A stretch of 64,000 nt of DNA, taken from IMG/VR virus record IMGVR_UViG_3300021964_009400; one strand, given 5' to 3'. The stretch comes from a virus. Its lineage: Duplodnaviria > Caudoviricetes. Of the stretch, positions 19,753 through 54,099 are shown piece after piece. The notes under the pieces are model-generated. The model saw only the letters and a list, made by a program, of their open reading frames with translations, ran no database searches and was not told the origin of the DNA. The position numbers and the translations under genes were made by a program. Numbering within the stretch: position 1 is the first letter of the stretch; the number at the start of each line of letters is the position of its first letter.

Positions 19753-20226
19753 ATGGTATATTGGTTTACAGGTCAACCTGGAGCAGGAAAAACTATTTTA
19801 GGTAAAAAACTTCACTCATTTCTTAAAACTGAAAAGAGAAATTGGAGAAAAACTGTATTTCATCTTGATGGAGATGACCTTCGAGAACTCACGATTAATA
19901 AAGATTATTCAAAACAAGGTAGGATTAATAATATTAGAAATGCCCAAATGATTGTAGAGTATCTTCATAACAATGATTGTGATGTTGTTATATCTCTTGT
20001 TGCTCCTTATCGTTCAATAAGAGAAGAGTTTAAACAAAAGATAGGTTTGGATAACTTTCAAGAGTTTTATGTACATACACAACAAAAAAGAGAAAGAGAT
20101 AAATTTCATACTAAAGATTATGAAAAACCTCAATTTGAATTTATAGATATAGATACTACTAGAGATAATCCTGATAAATCTTTTTCTAAAATAATAAATA
20201 CTCTTATTAATTTAAATAAATTGTAA
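19753..20226 (+). CDS. cysC: Adenylylsulfate (APS) kinase
   Basis: WFTGQPGAGKT, LDGDDLR, VVISLVAPY, DYEKP. Confidence 0.85.
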   Translation: MVYWFTGQPGAGKTILGKKLHSFLKTEKRNWRKTVFHLDGDDLRELTINKDYSKQGRINNIRNAQMIVEYLHNNDCDVVISLVAPYRSIREEFKQKIGLDNFQEFYVHTQQKRERDKFHTKDYEKPQFEFIDIDTTRDNPDKSFSKIINTLINLNKL

Positions 20227-21275
20227 TGATTGATAAATCGAAATATATCTGTGCAACTCCATTTGGTTACACAGAGGTTTTTGATGATAAACAATTTTTA
20301 TGTTGTCCTGGATGGTTAAAAGAAGATATATACGAAACACCAAGTATTAAAGATAATTTTAATTCAGAAAAATCTCAAAAAATTAGAGAATCTATTTTAG
20401 ATGGTTCGTATAAATATTGTGATGAAAAACAATGTCCTCATTTATCTGCATTTAAACAAAATAAGTTTATAGATAATAGATTTGTTCTTAAAGATAAAAA
20501 ATCTCTTACACAATATAAACCGATATCAAATATCAATACAATTAATTTTTGTTTTGATAGGAGTTGTAATTTGCAATGTCCATCTTGTAGAAGTGAACTG
20601 ATAAATTATTTAGGAAAAGATAGAGATGGTGTAGAAAATAAACTGAAACAAGTTAATGAAGAAATGTCTACAACAATAAAAAGATTGTATTTAAGTGGTT
20701 CTGCAGACCCTTTTTACTCAAAATCATTTAGACAATTTTTAATAAACTTTGACCCATCAAAGTATCCTAAAATGAAAACAATTCATATTCACACAAATGG
20801 TTTGTTATGGACAGACCAACTTTGGGAACGAATGAAAGGAATTCATAAATTTGTTAAATCATGTGAAGTATCAATTGATGCAGCAACTAAAGACACTTAT
20901 GAAAAGAAAGTTAGAATTGGTGGAAAATGGGAAACTCTTTTAAAACAACTAGATTTTATAATCAATATACCAACTATAAAATCTTATATATTTTCATTTG
21001 TAGTACAAGATAATAATTACAAAGAAATGTATTCTTTTTATGAATTAATAAAAAACTTAAATTGGAAATTTAATAAAAAGTTTACAGTATTTTTTAATCA
21101 TATAACTAATTGGGGAACATATTCAGAACAACAATATTTATTAAAAGATGTTTCAAATAAATCAAACGAATCGCATACAGATTTTTTATTAGAGTTAAAG
21201 AAAATACATAATAAAAAAAATGTATCTCATAATTTTCATCATTTAGTAGAACCAATTAAAAAAAGTTTAATATAA
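20226..21275 (+). CDS. Radical SAM protein with N-terminal SPASM/twitch-like Cys cluster
   Basis: CNLQCPSC (CxxxCxxC); N-terminal CATPF...CCPGW...YCDEKQCP; EVSIDA. Confidence 0.85.
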   Translation: MIDKSKYICATPFGYTEVFDDKQFLCCPGWLKEDIYETPSIKDNFNSEKSQKIRESILDGSYKYCDEKQCPHLSAFKQNKFIDNRFVLKDKKSLTQYKPISNINTINFCFDRSCNLQCPSCRSELINYLGKDRDGVENKLKQVNEEMSTTIKRLYLSGSADPFYSKSFRQFLINFDPSKYPKMKTIHIHTNGLLWTDQLWERMKGIHKFVKSCEVSIDAATKDTYEKKVRIGGKWETLLKQLDFIINIPTIKSYIFSFVVQDNNYKEMYSFYELIKNLNWKFNKKFTVFFNHITNWGTYSEQQYLLKDVSNKSNESHTDFLLELKKIHNKKNVSHNFHHLVEPIKKSLI

Positions 21276-21634
21276 TGAAAAAGTATTCAATGTTTATTGG
21301 CAGGTGGCAACCACTTCACAAAGGCCATCTTTGGTTAATTAATCAAAGATTAAAAGAAGGTAAAAATGTATGTTTAGCAATTAGAGATGTTGAACCAAAT
21401 GAAAATCAACCTTGGACGGCTCATCAAATTGAAGAAATGATTCACGAGGGAGAATTAAAAGAATTAATACAAGATGGTAGAGTAATAACAACAATAATAC
21501 CTGATATAGAATCAATCAACTATGGTAGAGGTGTTGGTTATGAAGTAATTGAACACTTTCCACCAGATGAAATTAAAGAAATCTCAGCAACCTCAATTAG
21601 AGAACAAATGAGAAAAGAAGGTAAATTGTTATGA
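21275..21634 (+). CDS. Cytidylyltransferase-like nucleotidyltransferase
   Basis: FIGRWQPLHKGH (HxGH); ISATSIR. Confidence 0.8.
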   Translation: MKKYSMFIGRWQPLHKGHLWLINQRLKEGKNVCLAIRDVEPNENQPWTAHQIEEMIHEGELKELIQDGRVITTIIPDIESINYGRGVGYEVIEHFPPDEIKEISATSIREQMRKEGKLL

Positions 21635-22143
21635 TATTTGAAGATTCAATACCATTATTTAATTCAAGTGAATTAGATTTTATTAAATCTAGTTGGAGAA
21701 ACGATAGGGCAGAAGAAAGAAACTATAAAGATAGAAGTTATTATTATAATGTTCTTTATGATTTGCCTCAACAGTATGTAGATAGATTTTTAGATTGGAT
21801 TGAAAATAAAATTGAAAAGAAAATTGAAAATAGAAAAAAATATGATTTAATTCTACACAAATTTGAAAAAGGAGATTATTTTGATTATCATACAGATGAT
21901 GGATATAAAGAACTTGGAAAGAGAGAATATGCTGCCGGATTTCATGTAAATGATGATTATGATGGTGGAGAATTTGTTGTATATGAAAACCATAAAGAAA
22001 GAGTTATAGGAAAAAAAGCTGGTATTCCTTATATATTTTCATCTGATGTTGGTCATAGAATAAATAAAGTTAAATCAAATATTAGATATAGTATAATCAT
22101 ATTTATATATGATAATTCTATTGATAATAAAAGTTTAATATGA
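21631..22143 (+). CDS. 2OG-Fe(II) oxygenase
   Basis: YHTD, YDGGEF, HRINKV, RYS. Confidence 0.8.
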   Translation: MIFEDSIPLFNSSELDFIKSSWRNDRAEERNYKDRSYYYNVLYDLPQQYVDRFLDWIENKIEKKIENRKKYDLILHKFEKGDYFDYHTDDGYKELGKREYAAGFHVNDDYDGGEFVVYENHKERVIGKKAGIPYIFSSDVGHRINKVKSNIRYSIIIFIYDNSIDNKSLI

Positions 22144-52272: not shown

Positions 52273-52536
52273 ATGACACCAGAAGAGTATTACTACAAAT
52301 ATATTAAAAAAGATAATGAAATACTCTATGAAATGAGAATAAAATCTCTTGGTTGGATGTTAGGTTGTTTTGAAAAAGGAACAATACGAAAAAAAACTAT
52401 CATAAATCTTATACCACTTTCAGAATTATATACACTTTTAGATTGGTTAGTAGAAAATGAAAGATACGAGGAGTGTGTTGTTGTAAAAAAAGTAATAGAT
52501 AAAATATACGAACCAAGTAAAAAACAAAAATTATGA
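52273..52536 (+). CDS. Hypothetical protein with UVR-like C-terminal motif
   Basis: LDWLVENERYEECVVVKKVID. Confidence 0.55.
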   Translation: MTPEEYYYKYIKKDNEILYEMRIKSLGWMLGCFEKGTIRKKTIINLIPLSELYTLLDWLVENERYEECVVVKKVIDKIYEPSKKQKL

Positions 52537-53213
52537 TTGATTATAATGGAGGATTAGTTTTTTTAGGAGATTCATTTACTTGGGGACAGGGGTTACATTA
52601 TTACTATATGATAGAAAATCATGGATGGACTCAATTAGATTGTAAAAAGTTTTTTGATAGTCAAGATAGATTTGAATGGTTGGGATTTCAAGCAGATGAA
52701 TATAGAAGAAAATATTCATTCCCTTATTTAGTATCAAATAAATTAAATAAACTAATGATAACACCCTCATTTGAAAATGGAGGTGATAATAAATCGATAC
52801 TTGATAATTTAAAACGCATAAAATATTTTACTACAATTAACAATGTAGAAAATATAATAATACAATTTTCCACCCCAACAAGAAATTTGAATGAAAATGA
52901 ATACAAAACATTAGAACATCTTATATATACTCAAATTAAAAAAGTAGATGATGAATGTAAAAAAATGAACATAAAATGGATTGGATTTTCATGGGTACCT
53001 GAGTTTAGTATAATTCTTAAAAAATATTTTCCAAATAACTTCACACCAATTCAATATAAAAATAAAGAATATCATACTATTACTGAAAATGATGAAAATT
53101 TAAAAAAATTATTTTTTCCTTACGATTTAAAAATTAATGACGCACATCCAAATAAATTAGGACATGAAATCATATCAAAATCTATTATAAATAAACTAAA
53201 ACAAATCAAATGA
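52533..53213 (+). CDS. SGNH/GDSL-like protein
   Basis: FLGDSFTWG, NGGDN, IQFS, DAHPN. Confidence 0.65.
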   Translation: MIDYNGGLVFLGDSFTWGQGLHYYYMIENHGWTQLDCKKFFDSQDRFEWLGFQADEYRRKYSFPYLVSNKLNKLMITPSFENGGDNKSILDNLKRIKYFTTINNVENIIIQFSTPTRNLNENEYKTLEHLIYTQIKKVDDECKKMNIKWIGFSWVPEFSIILKKYFPNNFTPIQYKNKEYHTITENDENLKKLFFPYDLKINDAHPNKLGHEIISKSIINKLKQIK

Positions 53214-53349
53214 AATCAAAAACAAAAAGAAAACAAGAGGTGATTAAAAACCTAACAAACACTATTCTAAAAGAATCTCAAAAGATTGGTGGGGGAAATA
53301 AAGAATTAATGAGTAAATTACAAATTAAATTAGATAATTTAATCCAACA

Positions 53350-54099
53350 ATGAAAAAACCTCTAGTAAAATTATTTGGGTGTTCATTTTCAGAACAATAT
53401 AACTCAACCTTTGAGGGTGGACCACTTAGAAATGGTTTATATGAATTTGATTTTGAAGGATATACCTTTCATAATTTTGGATATTCGAGTGCGAGTAATT
53501 ATAAGATATTCAATTTATTTGAAACAAATATAAAACCAAATGATACTTGTATTATACAATGGAGTTCACTTACCCGTCCACAAGAAGAGGACCATAATTT
53601 TATAGTAAAATCAGAAGAAAATCCTCTTTACTATTTTTTGGATAAATGGTATAAAATTTTGGAAAAGGTTCAAGAAATATCAAAAGAAAAAAATATTACA
53701 CTTATTCAACATATAGGATGGGCTCATTGGAAAGATAATGAATTAAACGAGTACCATAGAAACAAACTTAATTCATATAACATAATTTGGTATAGTTCAA
53801 AAGAGACGTGGGATAGAATAGATTCAAATTGTTATCAATTCGAACCCCCAAATGTATGGAGTTCGAGTGCGAAGAAATCTATACATGGAGGAGGAGAACC
53901 ATCTTATTTTTGGAGTGATTTAAAGTGGGGTGGAATGAGTGAGTGGATACGAGATAATATTGAAATAGAAAATAGATACCTTGGATATCATCATAAAGAA
54001 GCTCCTAATCATTTTGATTCTCATCCAAGTTTATATGCATCCAAAGTATTTTTCAAAAATCAAATGATAAAAAAACTTAACCAATTAAAGTTGATATAA
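53350..54099 (+). CDS. SGNH/GDSL-like protein
   Basis: LFGCSF, NFGYSSASN, IQWS, DSHPS. Confidence 0.65.
   Translation: MKKPLVKLFGCSFSEQYNSTFEGGPLRNGLYEFDFEGYTFHNFGYSSASNYKIFNLFETNIKPNDTCIIQWSSLTRPQEEDHNFIVKSEENPLYYFLDKWYKILEKVQEISKEKNITLIQHIGWAHWKDNELNEYHRNKLNSYNIIWYSSKETWDRIDSNCYQFEPPNVWSSSAKKSIHGGGEPSYFWSDLKWGGMSEWIRDNIEIENRYLGYHHKEAPNHFDSHPSLYASKVFFKNQMIKKLNQLKLI

Follow-up and report, generated by a model that had tools for sequence, protein, structure and literature searches.

Why should enzymes of unrelated kinds, encoded close to one another in a single phage genome, end in nearly the same few residues? The question is raised by a 64,000-nucleotide stretch of DNA (the window) from a virus of the Caudoviricetes, IMG/VR record IMGVR_UViG_3300021964_009400, in which many putative modification enzymes encoded between positions 20226 and 54099 carry a C-terminal tail of the form K-x-x-L-I. 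An earlier reading of the letters and ORF translations (the sequence-only reading) had taken this tail for a docking tag that recruits a diverse enzyme set to one scaffold. The analysis described here indicates that the tail is very probably a peptide-level short linear motif, anchored at the C terminus and common to unrelated tailoring enzymes of phages. It also points to a phage small heat-shock protein (sHSP) as a candidate hub that reads the motif, a statement to which, taken as a whole, we assign a probability of about 0.4.

Enrichment of the tail in the window

The window was represented by 92 non-overlapping open reading frames (ORFs), nearly all of them on the + strand, in DNA of ~28% G+C. 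Terminal -LI is found in eight of them, whereas the frequency of the LI dipeptide within the proteins predicts 0.68 (binomial P = 4.8e-7, or ~2e-4 once corrected for the 400 possible dipeptides), and -LI is by far the most deviant of the terminal dipeptides. Lys-anchored endings (K..LI or K.LI) number seven, versus 0.19 expected. The suspected excess over other phage ORFs was borne out, with 8 of 92 in the window compared with a background of 1 terminal -LI in 256 ORFs from other AT-rich marine phage loci. All eight -LI endings lie where they had been described, at gene ends 21275, 22143, 22649, 27322, 29714, 30288, 45067 and 54099; the related endings KNKVLL, KNKILM, KNKTTI and YKQII are likewise present in the ORF list, and the codons under the window tails are, as had been noted, TTA, CTA or TTG for Leu and ATA or ATT for Ile.

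Paralogy was considered as a source of the common tails and rejected: the only clear paralogues among the tailed proteins of the window are two 2-oxoglutarate (2OG)-Fe(II) oxygenases (33% identity), whose alignment ends before the tail. The SGNH-like proteins of the window are connected by weak links of mutual similarity. No signal peptides were found in the tailed enzymes.

Evidence for selection on the peptide

The similarity between tailed genes at their junctions covers ~15 nt and ends at the stop codon, and the spacing from there to the next start varies by ~9 nt (ATGA, TAATG, TAGTG, TAATATG, TAAAATG and TAAAAATG junctions); the register of the motif is that of the stop codon, not that of the next start. 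The Leu and Ile codons under 61 tails, pooled from tail-rich phage loci, match genome usage (TTA 0.62 versus 0.54; ATA 0.54 versus 0.42), and K-S-L-I is written both as AAA AGT TTA ATA and as AAA TCT CTA ATC in different phages. The tail rate is 15.8% in genes whose downstream neighbour is coupled (gap ≤5 nt) and 10.4% in genes followed by a gap of >30 nt. Composition, junction sequence and coupling therefore fail to account for the tails, because the register is anchored at the stop, the codons are genome-like and the rate is nearly independent of coupling. The peptide-level selection proposed in the sequence-only reading is upheld, and the combination of composition with TAATG/ATGA coupling, named there as the explanation that could overturn it, fails on the coupled and gapped rates.

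The pattern could nevertheless be imagined as a translated DNA or RNA signal, such as a cassette-shuffling junction, a promoter or a re-initiation context, since the string AAAAGT..TTAATAT is common to three window tails and the majority of tailed genes overlap or abut the next start. Against this stand the end of the similarity at the stop codon with its shifting register to the next start, the free variation of synonymous codons at genome usage, and the persistence of tails both across gaps of >30 nt and in the gene at 53350–54099, which is tailed and has no coupled gene downstream. By register, synonymous variation and coupling rates, DNA-level explanations, translational coupling included, are effectively excluded.

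Conservation and structural context of the tail

In orthologues down to 30% identity, K-x-[LI]-[IL] is kept at the carboxyl end and the polar linker preceding it is variable; the consensus of the tail is K-K-[N/S/T/K]-[L/I]-[I/L] at the free carboxyl terminus. In sulfotransferase-like orthologues, with endings that include PKNLI, PKDLI, PKHLI, PKSLI, PKELI, PKQLI, PKKTI, PKTII and TKKII, the middle residue is free and the flanking residues and the position of the stop are fixed (alignment A2). In the SGNH family, 26 orthologues end in an aliphatic pair after linkers of differing length (alignment A1), the endings including EKNNLI, EKKLI, GKTII, RKII, EIRSII and NRTII.

An exhaustive profile search with the sulfotransferase alignment gave 727 representatives of this family at the 50% identity level, and the tail statistics cover the best 150 of these, which are mutually <50% identical. 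Two aliphatic residues end 107 of the 150 (LI 39, II 29, LL 19, IL 9). The terminal residue is Ile in 91 of them, the penultimate one is Leu or Ile in 103, and 72 have Lys in fourth-last place. Phe and Val are under-represented as last residue and aromatic residues in general at both of the final positions, and for the terminal place there is a strong preference for Ile over Val or Leu. Members of the family that lack the tail stop 8–12 residues earlier, right after the fold-closing LDPxxKYRxN; in the others, the tail is joined to the fold through a variable linker of 5–12 residues, and the region of the tail has many Lys, Arg, Tyr and Phe residues. Because tail-less members stop at the end of the fold while tailed ones keep the aliphatic pair, the tail is a highly specific, optional module added on to the fold. 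This agrees with the earlier proposal of an acquired tag on unrelated folds, as does the variation of the linker. Homologues from tail-poor lineages end otherwise (...ELLDE, ...LGEQQ, ...KQKIDK).

The SGNH and sulfotransferase families have no detectable relative in 185,579 prokaryote species genomes, and no cultured relatives with tailed enzymes were found. Cultured phages have just distant 2OG and hsp20 homologues (cyanophages and pelagiphage HTVC115P), in genomes without the tail.

The sulfotransferase-like protein (26702–27322) has no Pfam match, and the best fold match of its AlphaFold model (mean predicted local distance difference test score (pLDDT) 86) is the Stf0 sugar sulfotransferase (1tex; probability 1.0, TM-score 0.52), a match by which it has the P-loop sulfotransferase fold. 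R15, G17 and T19 near the N terminus, together with R95 and S104, are invariant and may be read as the 5'-phosphosulfate-binding (5'-PSB) and 3'-phosphate-binding (3'-PB) motifs for 3'-phosphoadenosine-5'-phosphosulfate (PAPS). The last ~16 residues of the AlphaFold2 (AF2) model, including the conserved PKxLI, are coil at pLDDT 52–60. In the SGNH model (AF2, pLDDT 92), the last helix (residues 170–188) continues into the tail; in these two families, the tail is thus found once as coil outside the fold and once in continuity with a helix. The phage carbamoyltransferase of NodU/TobZ type in G001 ends ...IIKKKVL, in which KKK corresponds in the alignment to RRR or RGK at the close of the NovN/GdmN catalytic domain, the phage addition being VL alone. 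The tail belongs to no single fold.

Distribution among phages and enzyme types

The tail is appended to at least ten unrelated families of tailoring enzymes in a large clade of AT-rich uncultured marine jumbo phages, and is carried by ~10–19% of genes in tail-rich regions. Carriers include radical SAM enzymes, several 2OG oxygenases, the sulfotransferase, FkbM-type, SGNH-like and carbamoyltransferase proteins, and members of DUF6071 and DUF6734. The canonical tail is missing from precursor-supply enzymes (APS kinase, PfkB, DegT, ferredoxin, FNR-like reductase and amidinotransferase), a split between tailoring and supply that rests on few genes, with the cytidylyltransferase as a borderline case.

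For the comparison of contigs, the tail was scored as terminal [KR]-x(1-3)-[LIVM][LIVM], with Phe also admitted in the last two positions for G006–G010. Observed tails exceed expectation in G001 (19 versus 3.0), G008 (14 versus 2.2), G010 (7 versus 1.1), G007 (9 versus 2.7) and G009 (7 versus 2.5), and also in the complete genomes G011 (17 versus 5.0) and G012 (18 versus 5.2). No enrichment is seen in G004 (7 versus 3.4) or G002 (2 versus 1.6). Syntenic relatives of the window's phage are G001 and the complete 276-kb genome G011. A six-gene tailed cassette of the window (26702–31054) is missing from G011, in which position 26254 of the window maps to 243973 and position 31125 to 244440, and parts of it are found at 69–83% identity in the more distant contig G007/L022. 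Because G011 is syntenic and lacks this block, tailed cassettes appear to be exchangeable, and 26702–31054 looks like one of them.

Association with small heat-shock protein genes

A phyletic comparison left a few untailed families that both tail-rich lineage groups have and the tail-poor contigs lack, HSP20 being one of them. The discovery set (G001–G004 and G007–G010) was not chosen on sHSPs. HSP20 is present in all five strongly tail-rich contigs (G001, G007, G008, G009 and G010) and absent from the tail-poor G002, G003 and G004 (142–250 kb); across a wider set, G007–G015 and others have an HSP20 gene, and an alpha-crystallin protein is present in the window's own phage.

Within 10 kb of an sHSP gene, 303 of 1610 ORFs are tailed versus 31.6 expected (9.6-fold), a count made over 76 distinct phage loci that were retrieved with the sHSP as query. 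The sHSP gene directly flanks runs of 10–11 tailed genes in L152, L185, L148, L154 and L150, the run in L152 including four 2OG oxygenases and one radical SAM enzyme, and the tail rate is 28–47% at 3–12 genes upstream of the sHSP. In the reverse and unbiased search, which started from the tailed sulfotransferase, an sHSP was found in 7 of 13 contigs of 50–170 kb, at a distance of 1–16 kb from the sulfotransferase gene. Both contigs in this set that are at least 83% complete have an sHSP, and the six sHSP-negative contigs are 16–51% complete.

The window itself has no sHSP gene. A walk past the window, by way of a sister contig 100% identical over 10.3 kb that added ~30 kb, placed the sHSP of this phage 21.1 kb past the window end (L223:12066-12437; 123 aa, ending KKAKSLKISY); over 93.5 kb, the window's phage has 17 tails versus 2.9 expected. 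The phage sHSPs are proteins of 123–160 aa with an HSP20/alpha-crystallin domain that end in K-[ST]-L-K-I-x or I-K-[IV]-G, and in their tails K127, L129, K130 and I131 do not vary even between clades sharing only 22–27% identity.

Other genes of the sHSP neighbourhood were also recorded. The window's phage also encodes, ~8 kb upstream of its sHSP gene, a protein of ~600 aa with a Hint/intein-splicing C-terminal domain (L223:2363-4153; L102:13213-15114), which accompanies the sHSP in G001, G007, G009 and G010 too. A phage-only protein of 377–445 aa with no known family (L223:12715-13941 and relatives) is always found near the sHSP gene; like the sHSP, its family occurs in the five tail-rich contigs and in none of the tail-poor ones.

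Docking on the small heat-shock protein as a candidate mechanism

In sHSP oligomers, the hydrophobic beta4–beta8 groove of one alpha-crystallin domain binds the C-terminal IxI/V motif of a neighbouring subunit and, in competition with it, the IPV motifs of BAG3 and client segments such as VQIINK of tau (PMC6212398), and a cyanophage sHSP forms cages of 24, 48 and 60 subunits, and dimers once its L-X-V tail is deleted (PMC8546028). The best-supported mechanism for the reading of the tail, at the probability of about 0.4 given above, is docking on the phage sHSP. The groove would normally take the sHSP's own C-terminal K-[ST]-L-K-I tail, which is of IxI type, and this self-binding would build the cages of 24 to 60 subunits. 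The enzyme tails, K-[STN]-L-I, resemble a shortened K-[ST]-L-K-I and may compete for these grooves or fill free ones. A changing set of pathway enzymes could in this way be tethered to one oligomeric hub, acting either as a holdase that keeps the enzymes soluble or as a scaffold that gathers them, and some four added codons might be enough to bring in a new enzyme. That the tail is a docking tag for a single scaffold is plausible, and the sHSP supplies a concrete candidate for that scaffold. A more ambitious version, which we regard as somewhat unlikely, would have tail and sHSP form a modular enzyme-scaffolding system, that is, a phage-built metabolon or nanoreactor that would take up a dozen or more unrelated enzymes by way of a four-residue tag and change its membership by the exchange of cassettes.

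The enzyme tails have in common with the IxI/V motif of sHSPs and the IPV motif of BAG3 a short aliphatic motif, surrounding Lys, Thr and Ser residues and, in the sulfotransferase model, a position in a C-terminal coil outside the fold, and the sHSP groove accepts motifs from other proteins in competition with its own tail (PMC6212398). They differ in that their aliphatic residues are adjacent and stand exactly at the free carboxyl end, and in that they are found on enzymes rather than on sHSPs or co-chaperones.

Several observations weigh against docking on the sHSP. An IxI motif needs aliphatic residues at i and i+2, whereas those of the enzyme tails are adjacent (L-I), with i/i+2 aliphatics in a minority of tails (KPNILI, KKINII, NKVLL and NKILM). 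The third-last residue is mostly Asn, Ser, Lys or Thr, and Val, in 4 of 61 tails, is the only hydrophobic residue among the commonest there. In a closed sHSP cage, moreover, every groove is filled by the sHSP's own tail. The sHSP block also contains an untailed HD-domain protein, the phage-only protein (here 408–445 aa) and two small ORFs, which the co-occurrence fits equally well. The tail-rich contigs represent few independent lineage groups, so that common ancestry may account for part of the association. Both pelagiphage HTVC115P and cyanophage P-SSM3, which are without islands of this kind, carry hsp20 and 2OG oxygenases and have 0 tails. Finally, no co-variation of tail composition with sHSP clade was found beyond p ~0.01–0.06; two K-T-L-F tails in L002/G006 are probably due to chance.

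Alternative readers and readings

The alternative that survives best, unlikely as it is, would make the tail a degradation or remodelling signal for a host AAA+ machine, comparable to the ClpX C-motif-2 degron of MuA; the enzymes would then have a limited lifetime or would serve as unfolding substrates. MuA, the transposase of phage Mu, is a phage protein that a host machine reads, and its end (...RRKKAI; CILEQNRRKKAI) places basic residues before small or aliphatic ones, with Ile at the free C terminus (PMC12723719). The enzyme tails resemble it in having Ile last and Lys fourth- or fifth-last, Lys being enriched from the fourth- to the sixth-last position, although C-motif-2 is a loosely defined class. 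The tail is accessible in the sulfotransferase model, ClpP is encoded by some related phages, and phage lineages of great diversity share one uniform motif, as a conserved host reader would predict. The enzyme tails nevertheless differ in an extra polar residue and a Leu or Ile before the last Ile; they occur on dozens of enzymes per genome, and they track the sHSP gene, not Clp. A degron does not predict the co-occurrence and adjacency of the sHSP, and there is no obvious reason to keep tailoring enzymes, at ~10–19% of regional genes, unstable in the long term. The ClpP of the phages themselves (G004 242535-243080, G002 81121-81648 and G003 112690-113217; L070–L072) does not follow the tail and was rejected as its reader, being present in tail-poor G004 and not found in tail-rich G001.

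It is likewise rather unlikely that the tail is a docking tag for some other protein, either the product of another untailed gene of the sHSP block or a part of the host's polysaccharide assembly or export machinery. The marked preference for Ile and Leu and the depletion of Phe and Val point to a shaped pocket in a protein, and the 377–445-aa family, with no known family relationship, adjoins the sHSP and matches its phyletic pattern; the sHSP, however, has a known peptide-binding function and its neighbours in the block have none that is known, and PDZ, TPR_16 and S41 domains were not detected in the relatives searched.

PDZ ligands comprise class I (S/T-x-hydrophobic-COOH) and class II (hydrophobic-x-hydrophobic-COOH), and most bacterial PDZ proteins are periplasmic. 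The tails share with them a free carboxylate and an aliphatic last residue, and K-S-L-I and K-T-L-I fit class I; they differ in that only about one-third of them have Ser or Thr third-last, that the tailed enzymes are without signal peptides and that none of 10 related phage records has a PDZ domain. A strict class I ligand, as entertained in the sequence-only reading, is accordingly not what the tails represent: Ser or Thr is third-last in 17 of 61 locus tails and in 53 of the 150 sulfotransferase representatives. The PDZ, TPR or tail-protease receptor that had been envisaged in the phage also did not materialize: PF13180 (PDZ_2) had no match in G001–G005 and PF00595 none in G006–G010, with controls matched in both searches, and neither TPR_16 nor Peptidase_S41 had a match in the five records G001–G005.

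Two further candidate partners were tried and rejected. The C-terminal tails of T4-type polymerases bind the sliding clamp, and gp33 and gp55 have similar tails, so that the enzyme tails, too, could be viewed as extreme C-terminal hydrophobic motifs that often follow basic residues. Polymerases of related marine phages, however, end in aromatic motifs (KFFEL, IERFF, SLEFLFG), whereas the enzyme tails avoid aromatics and are depleted in Phe, which speaks against a clamp tether; as for the window phage's own polymerase, none from the 278-kb contig is among the best 120 of 8000 family matches. The CobS-like AAA+ protein and its 693-aa neighbour (window 34499–37898) were set aside because a CobS homologue is also present in the tail-less L030 and in tail-less cyanophages.

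That the tails have no common partner at all is very unlikely. In this explanation, compact genes would have been trimmed to the last buried aliphatic residues of the final helix or strand, with Lys, Asn, Ile and Leu abundant in the proteome as a whole, and in some families the tail would serve intramolecularly as a lid or cap. The commonest residues are indeed Lys, Ile and Leu, the last helix of the SGNH model enters the tail, and the KKK of the carbamoyltransferase is the ancestral end of the fold. Terminal frequencies, however, are 6 to 12 times the internal ones, and the excess is limited to certain gene sets and lineages; the sulfotransferase tail is a conserved coil beyond a 5–12-residue linker and is absent from some members; indels in the SGNH linker would rotate a packed helix and so spoil its register; and Phe and Val, which would pack a core equally well, are depleted. 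The link with the sHSP would be left unexplained.

Highly improbable is a weak peripheral anchor, made of a polybasic stretch and two aliphatic residues, that would attach enzymes acting on lipid-linked glycans to the cytoplasmic membrane from inside. The enzyme set does resemble those that tailor Nod factors, O-antigens and capsules (sulfo-, carbamoyl- and methyltransferases and acyl esterases), the precursor-supply enzymes of the same islands are without the canonical tail, and the sulfotransferase tail region has the Lys, Arg, Tyr and Phe content described above. Two aliphatic residues, however, give little membrane affinity, the aromatic residues that favour the interface are depleted at the last two positions, Ile is preferred over Val and Leu at the end, and neither the exact C-terminal placement nor the association with the sHSP is explained. 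The translated DNA or RNA signal considered above comes last, its probability being close to nil.

Relation to known targeting tags and significance

Eukaryotic organelles and encapsulins offer precedents for short transferable tags by which unrelated enzymes are directed to a common partner: the peroxisomal PTS1 signal (-SKL) is read by the TPR protein Pex5, and cargo-loading peptides load enzymes into encapsulins. The phage tails are like these in that a few C-terminal residues are transferable across unrelated enzymes and, in the known systems, set their destination. They differ in sequence, receptor and organism, and a compartment is known for PTS1 and encapsulin cargo and none for these phages, although a cyanophage sHSP does form hollow cages (PMC8546028).

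In a limited search of the literature, no report was found of a transferable C-terminal tag on the auxiliary enzymes of phages. The tag is spread over hundreds of diverged members in one family alone, in some operons as many as half of the genes have it, and the phages that carry it include complete genomes of 170–276 kb. Because it is so widespread across families, operons and large phages, the tag can be regarded as a principal organising element in what is an abundant group of marine viruses. Should the sHSP be its reader, a testable function would follow for phage hsp20 genes, which were first found in cyanophages, and the two would constitute a natural minimal pair of tag and hub that could be reused for enzyme scaffolding; modular scaffolding, if it exists, would further explain why so many marine phages carry hsp20. 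With any other reader, the tag still marks a functionally linked set of phage genes that are otherwise unannotatable.

Tailed genes of the window

The tailed genes described here all lie on the + strand. Their enzyme labels, as first assigned, held in part: Pfam bears out the radical SAM enzyme, both 2OG oxygenases and the FkbM protein, the sulfotransferase is supported by its fold match and not by Pfam, and the SGNH label has weak Pfam support for 29716–30288 and 44129–45067 and none for 53350–54099.

The first is the radical SAM enzyme (20226–21275; Pfam Radical_SAM), with the tail IKKSLI; its orthologues end in KKVLI, KKEII, KKINII, KKRNVI and EKTLF. The cytidylyltransferase-like protein that follows (21275–21634; Pfam CTP_transf_like) has the borderline tail EGKLL, and its orthologues end in DGKL, so that the hydrophobic pair is not conserved. 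In the first 2OG-Fe(II) oxygenase (21631–22143), tailed DNKSLI, the 2OG-FeII_Oxy_3 match covers residues 75–160 of 170 and leaves the tail outside the domain; members of this family in relatives end in KPNILI, KKSLL, KQNLL, KNPLL and KKSLV. Its 33%-identical paralogue (22140–22649), also recognized by Pfam, ends in EKSSLI.

The six-gene tailed cassette opens with the Stf0-like sugar sulfotransferase (26702–27322; tail FPKNLI, assigned by fold match) and continues with a DUF6734-like protein (27322–28227; weak Pfam match) ending in KNKVLL, whose 83%-identical orthologue in L022 ends in KQRVLL. The next product (28224–29036) is an enzyme-sized protein with no assigned family and the tail KNKILM, and its relative in G001 ends in FDKNLI. 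The FkbM-type methyltransferase (29037–29714; Pfam Methyltransf_21, E = 8e-15) has the tail IFKSLI, an FkbM enzyme of G001 ending in LIKTII. An SGNH/GDSL-like hydrolase (29716–30288; weak Pfam Lipase_GDSL) with the tail EKNNLI and a protein without assigned family (30290–31054), which has the degenerate tail KNKTTI and an L022 orthologue ending in DRYML, complete the cassette.

An SGNH-like protein (44129–45067; weak Pfam Lipase_GDSL) carries the tail KQKELI, and its homologue in tail-poor G004 ends in KQKIDK. The gene at 46735–47514, its paralogue, ends in IYKQII, and its relatives end in KKKLI (G002) and KRKLI (L042). The last gene of the second island (53350–54099) encodes a protein with the tail NQLKLI and no Pfam match.

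Other features of the islands and their surroundings

The nearest protein-atlas clusters of the amidinotransferase (22812–23879, + strand) are StrB1-type inosamine-phosphate and glycine amidinotransferases. Taken together, the amidinotransferase, the TobZ/NodU-type carbamoyltransferase (G001) and the DegT, radical SAM and 2OG proteins of the islands resemble an aminocyclitol- or aminoglycoside-like tailoring set. The DegT/DnrJ-type signal comes from the N-terminal part of the profile only, in a 212-aa ORF (49713–50351) that overlaps the preceding 221-aa ORF; the gene in this region (49061–50351, + strand) may be split or truncated.

Downstream of the second island, a 63-aa homologue of ribosomal protein bS21 is encoded at 57165–57356 (+ strand), and PF01165 is recorded for the identical gene in L218. 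An N6/N4 DNA methyltransferase (PF01555; 57736–59238, + strand) is distributed over three consecutive overlapping ORFs of 244, 125 and 136 aa and may be frameshifted, split or recoded; the same layout is found in the sister contig L218.

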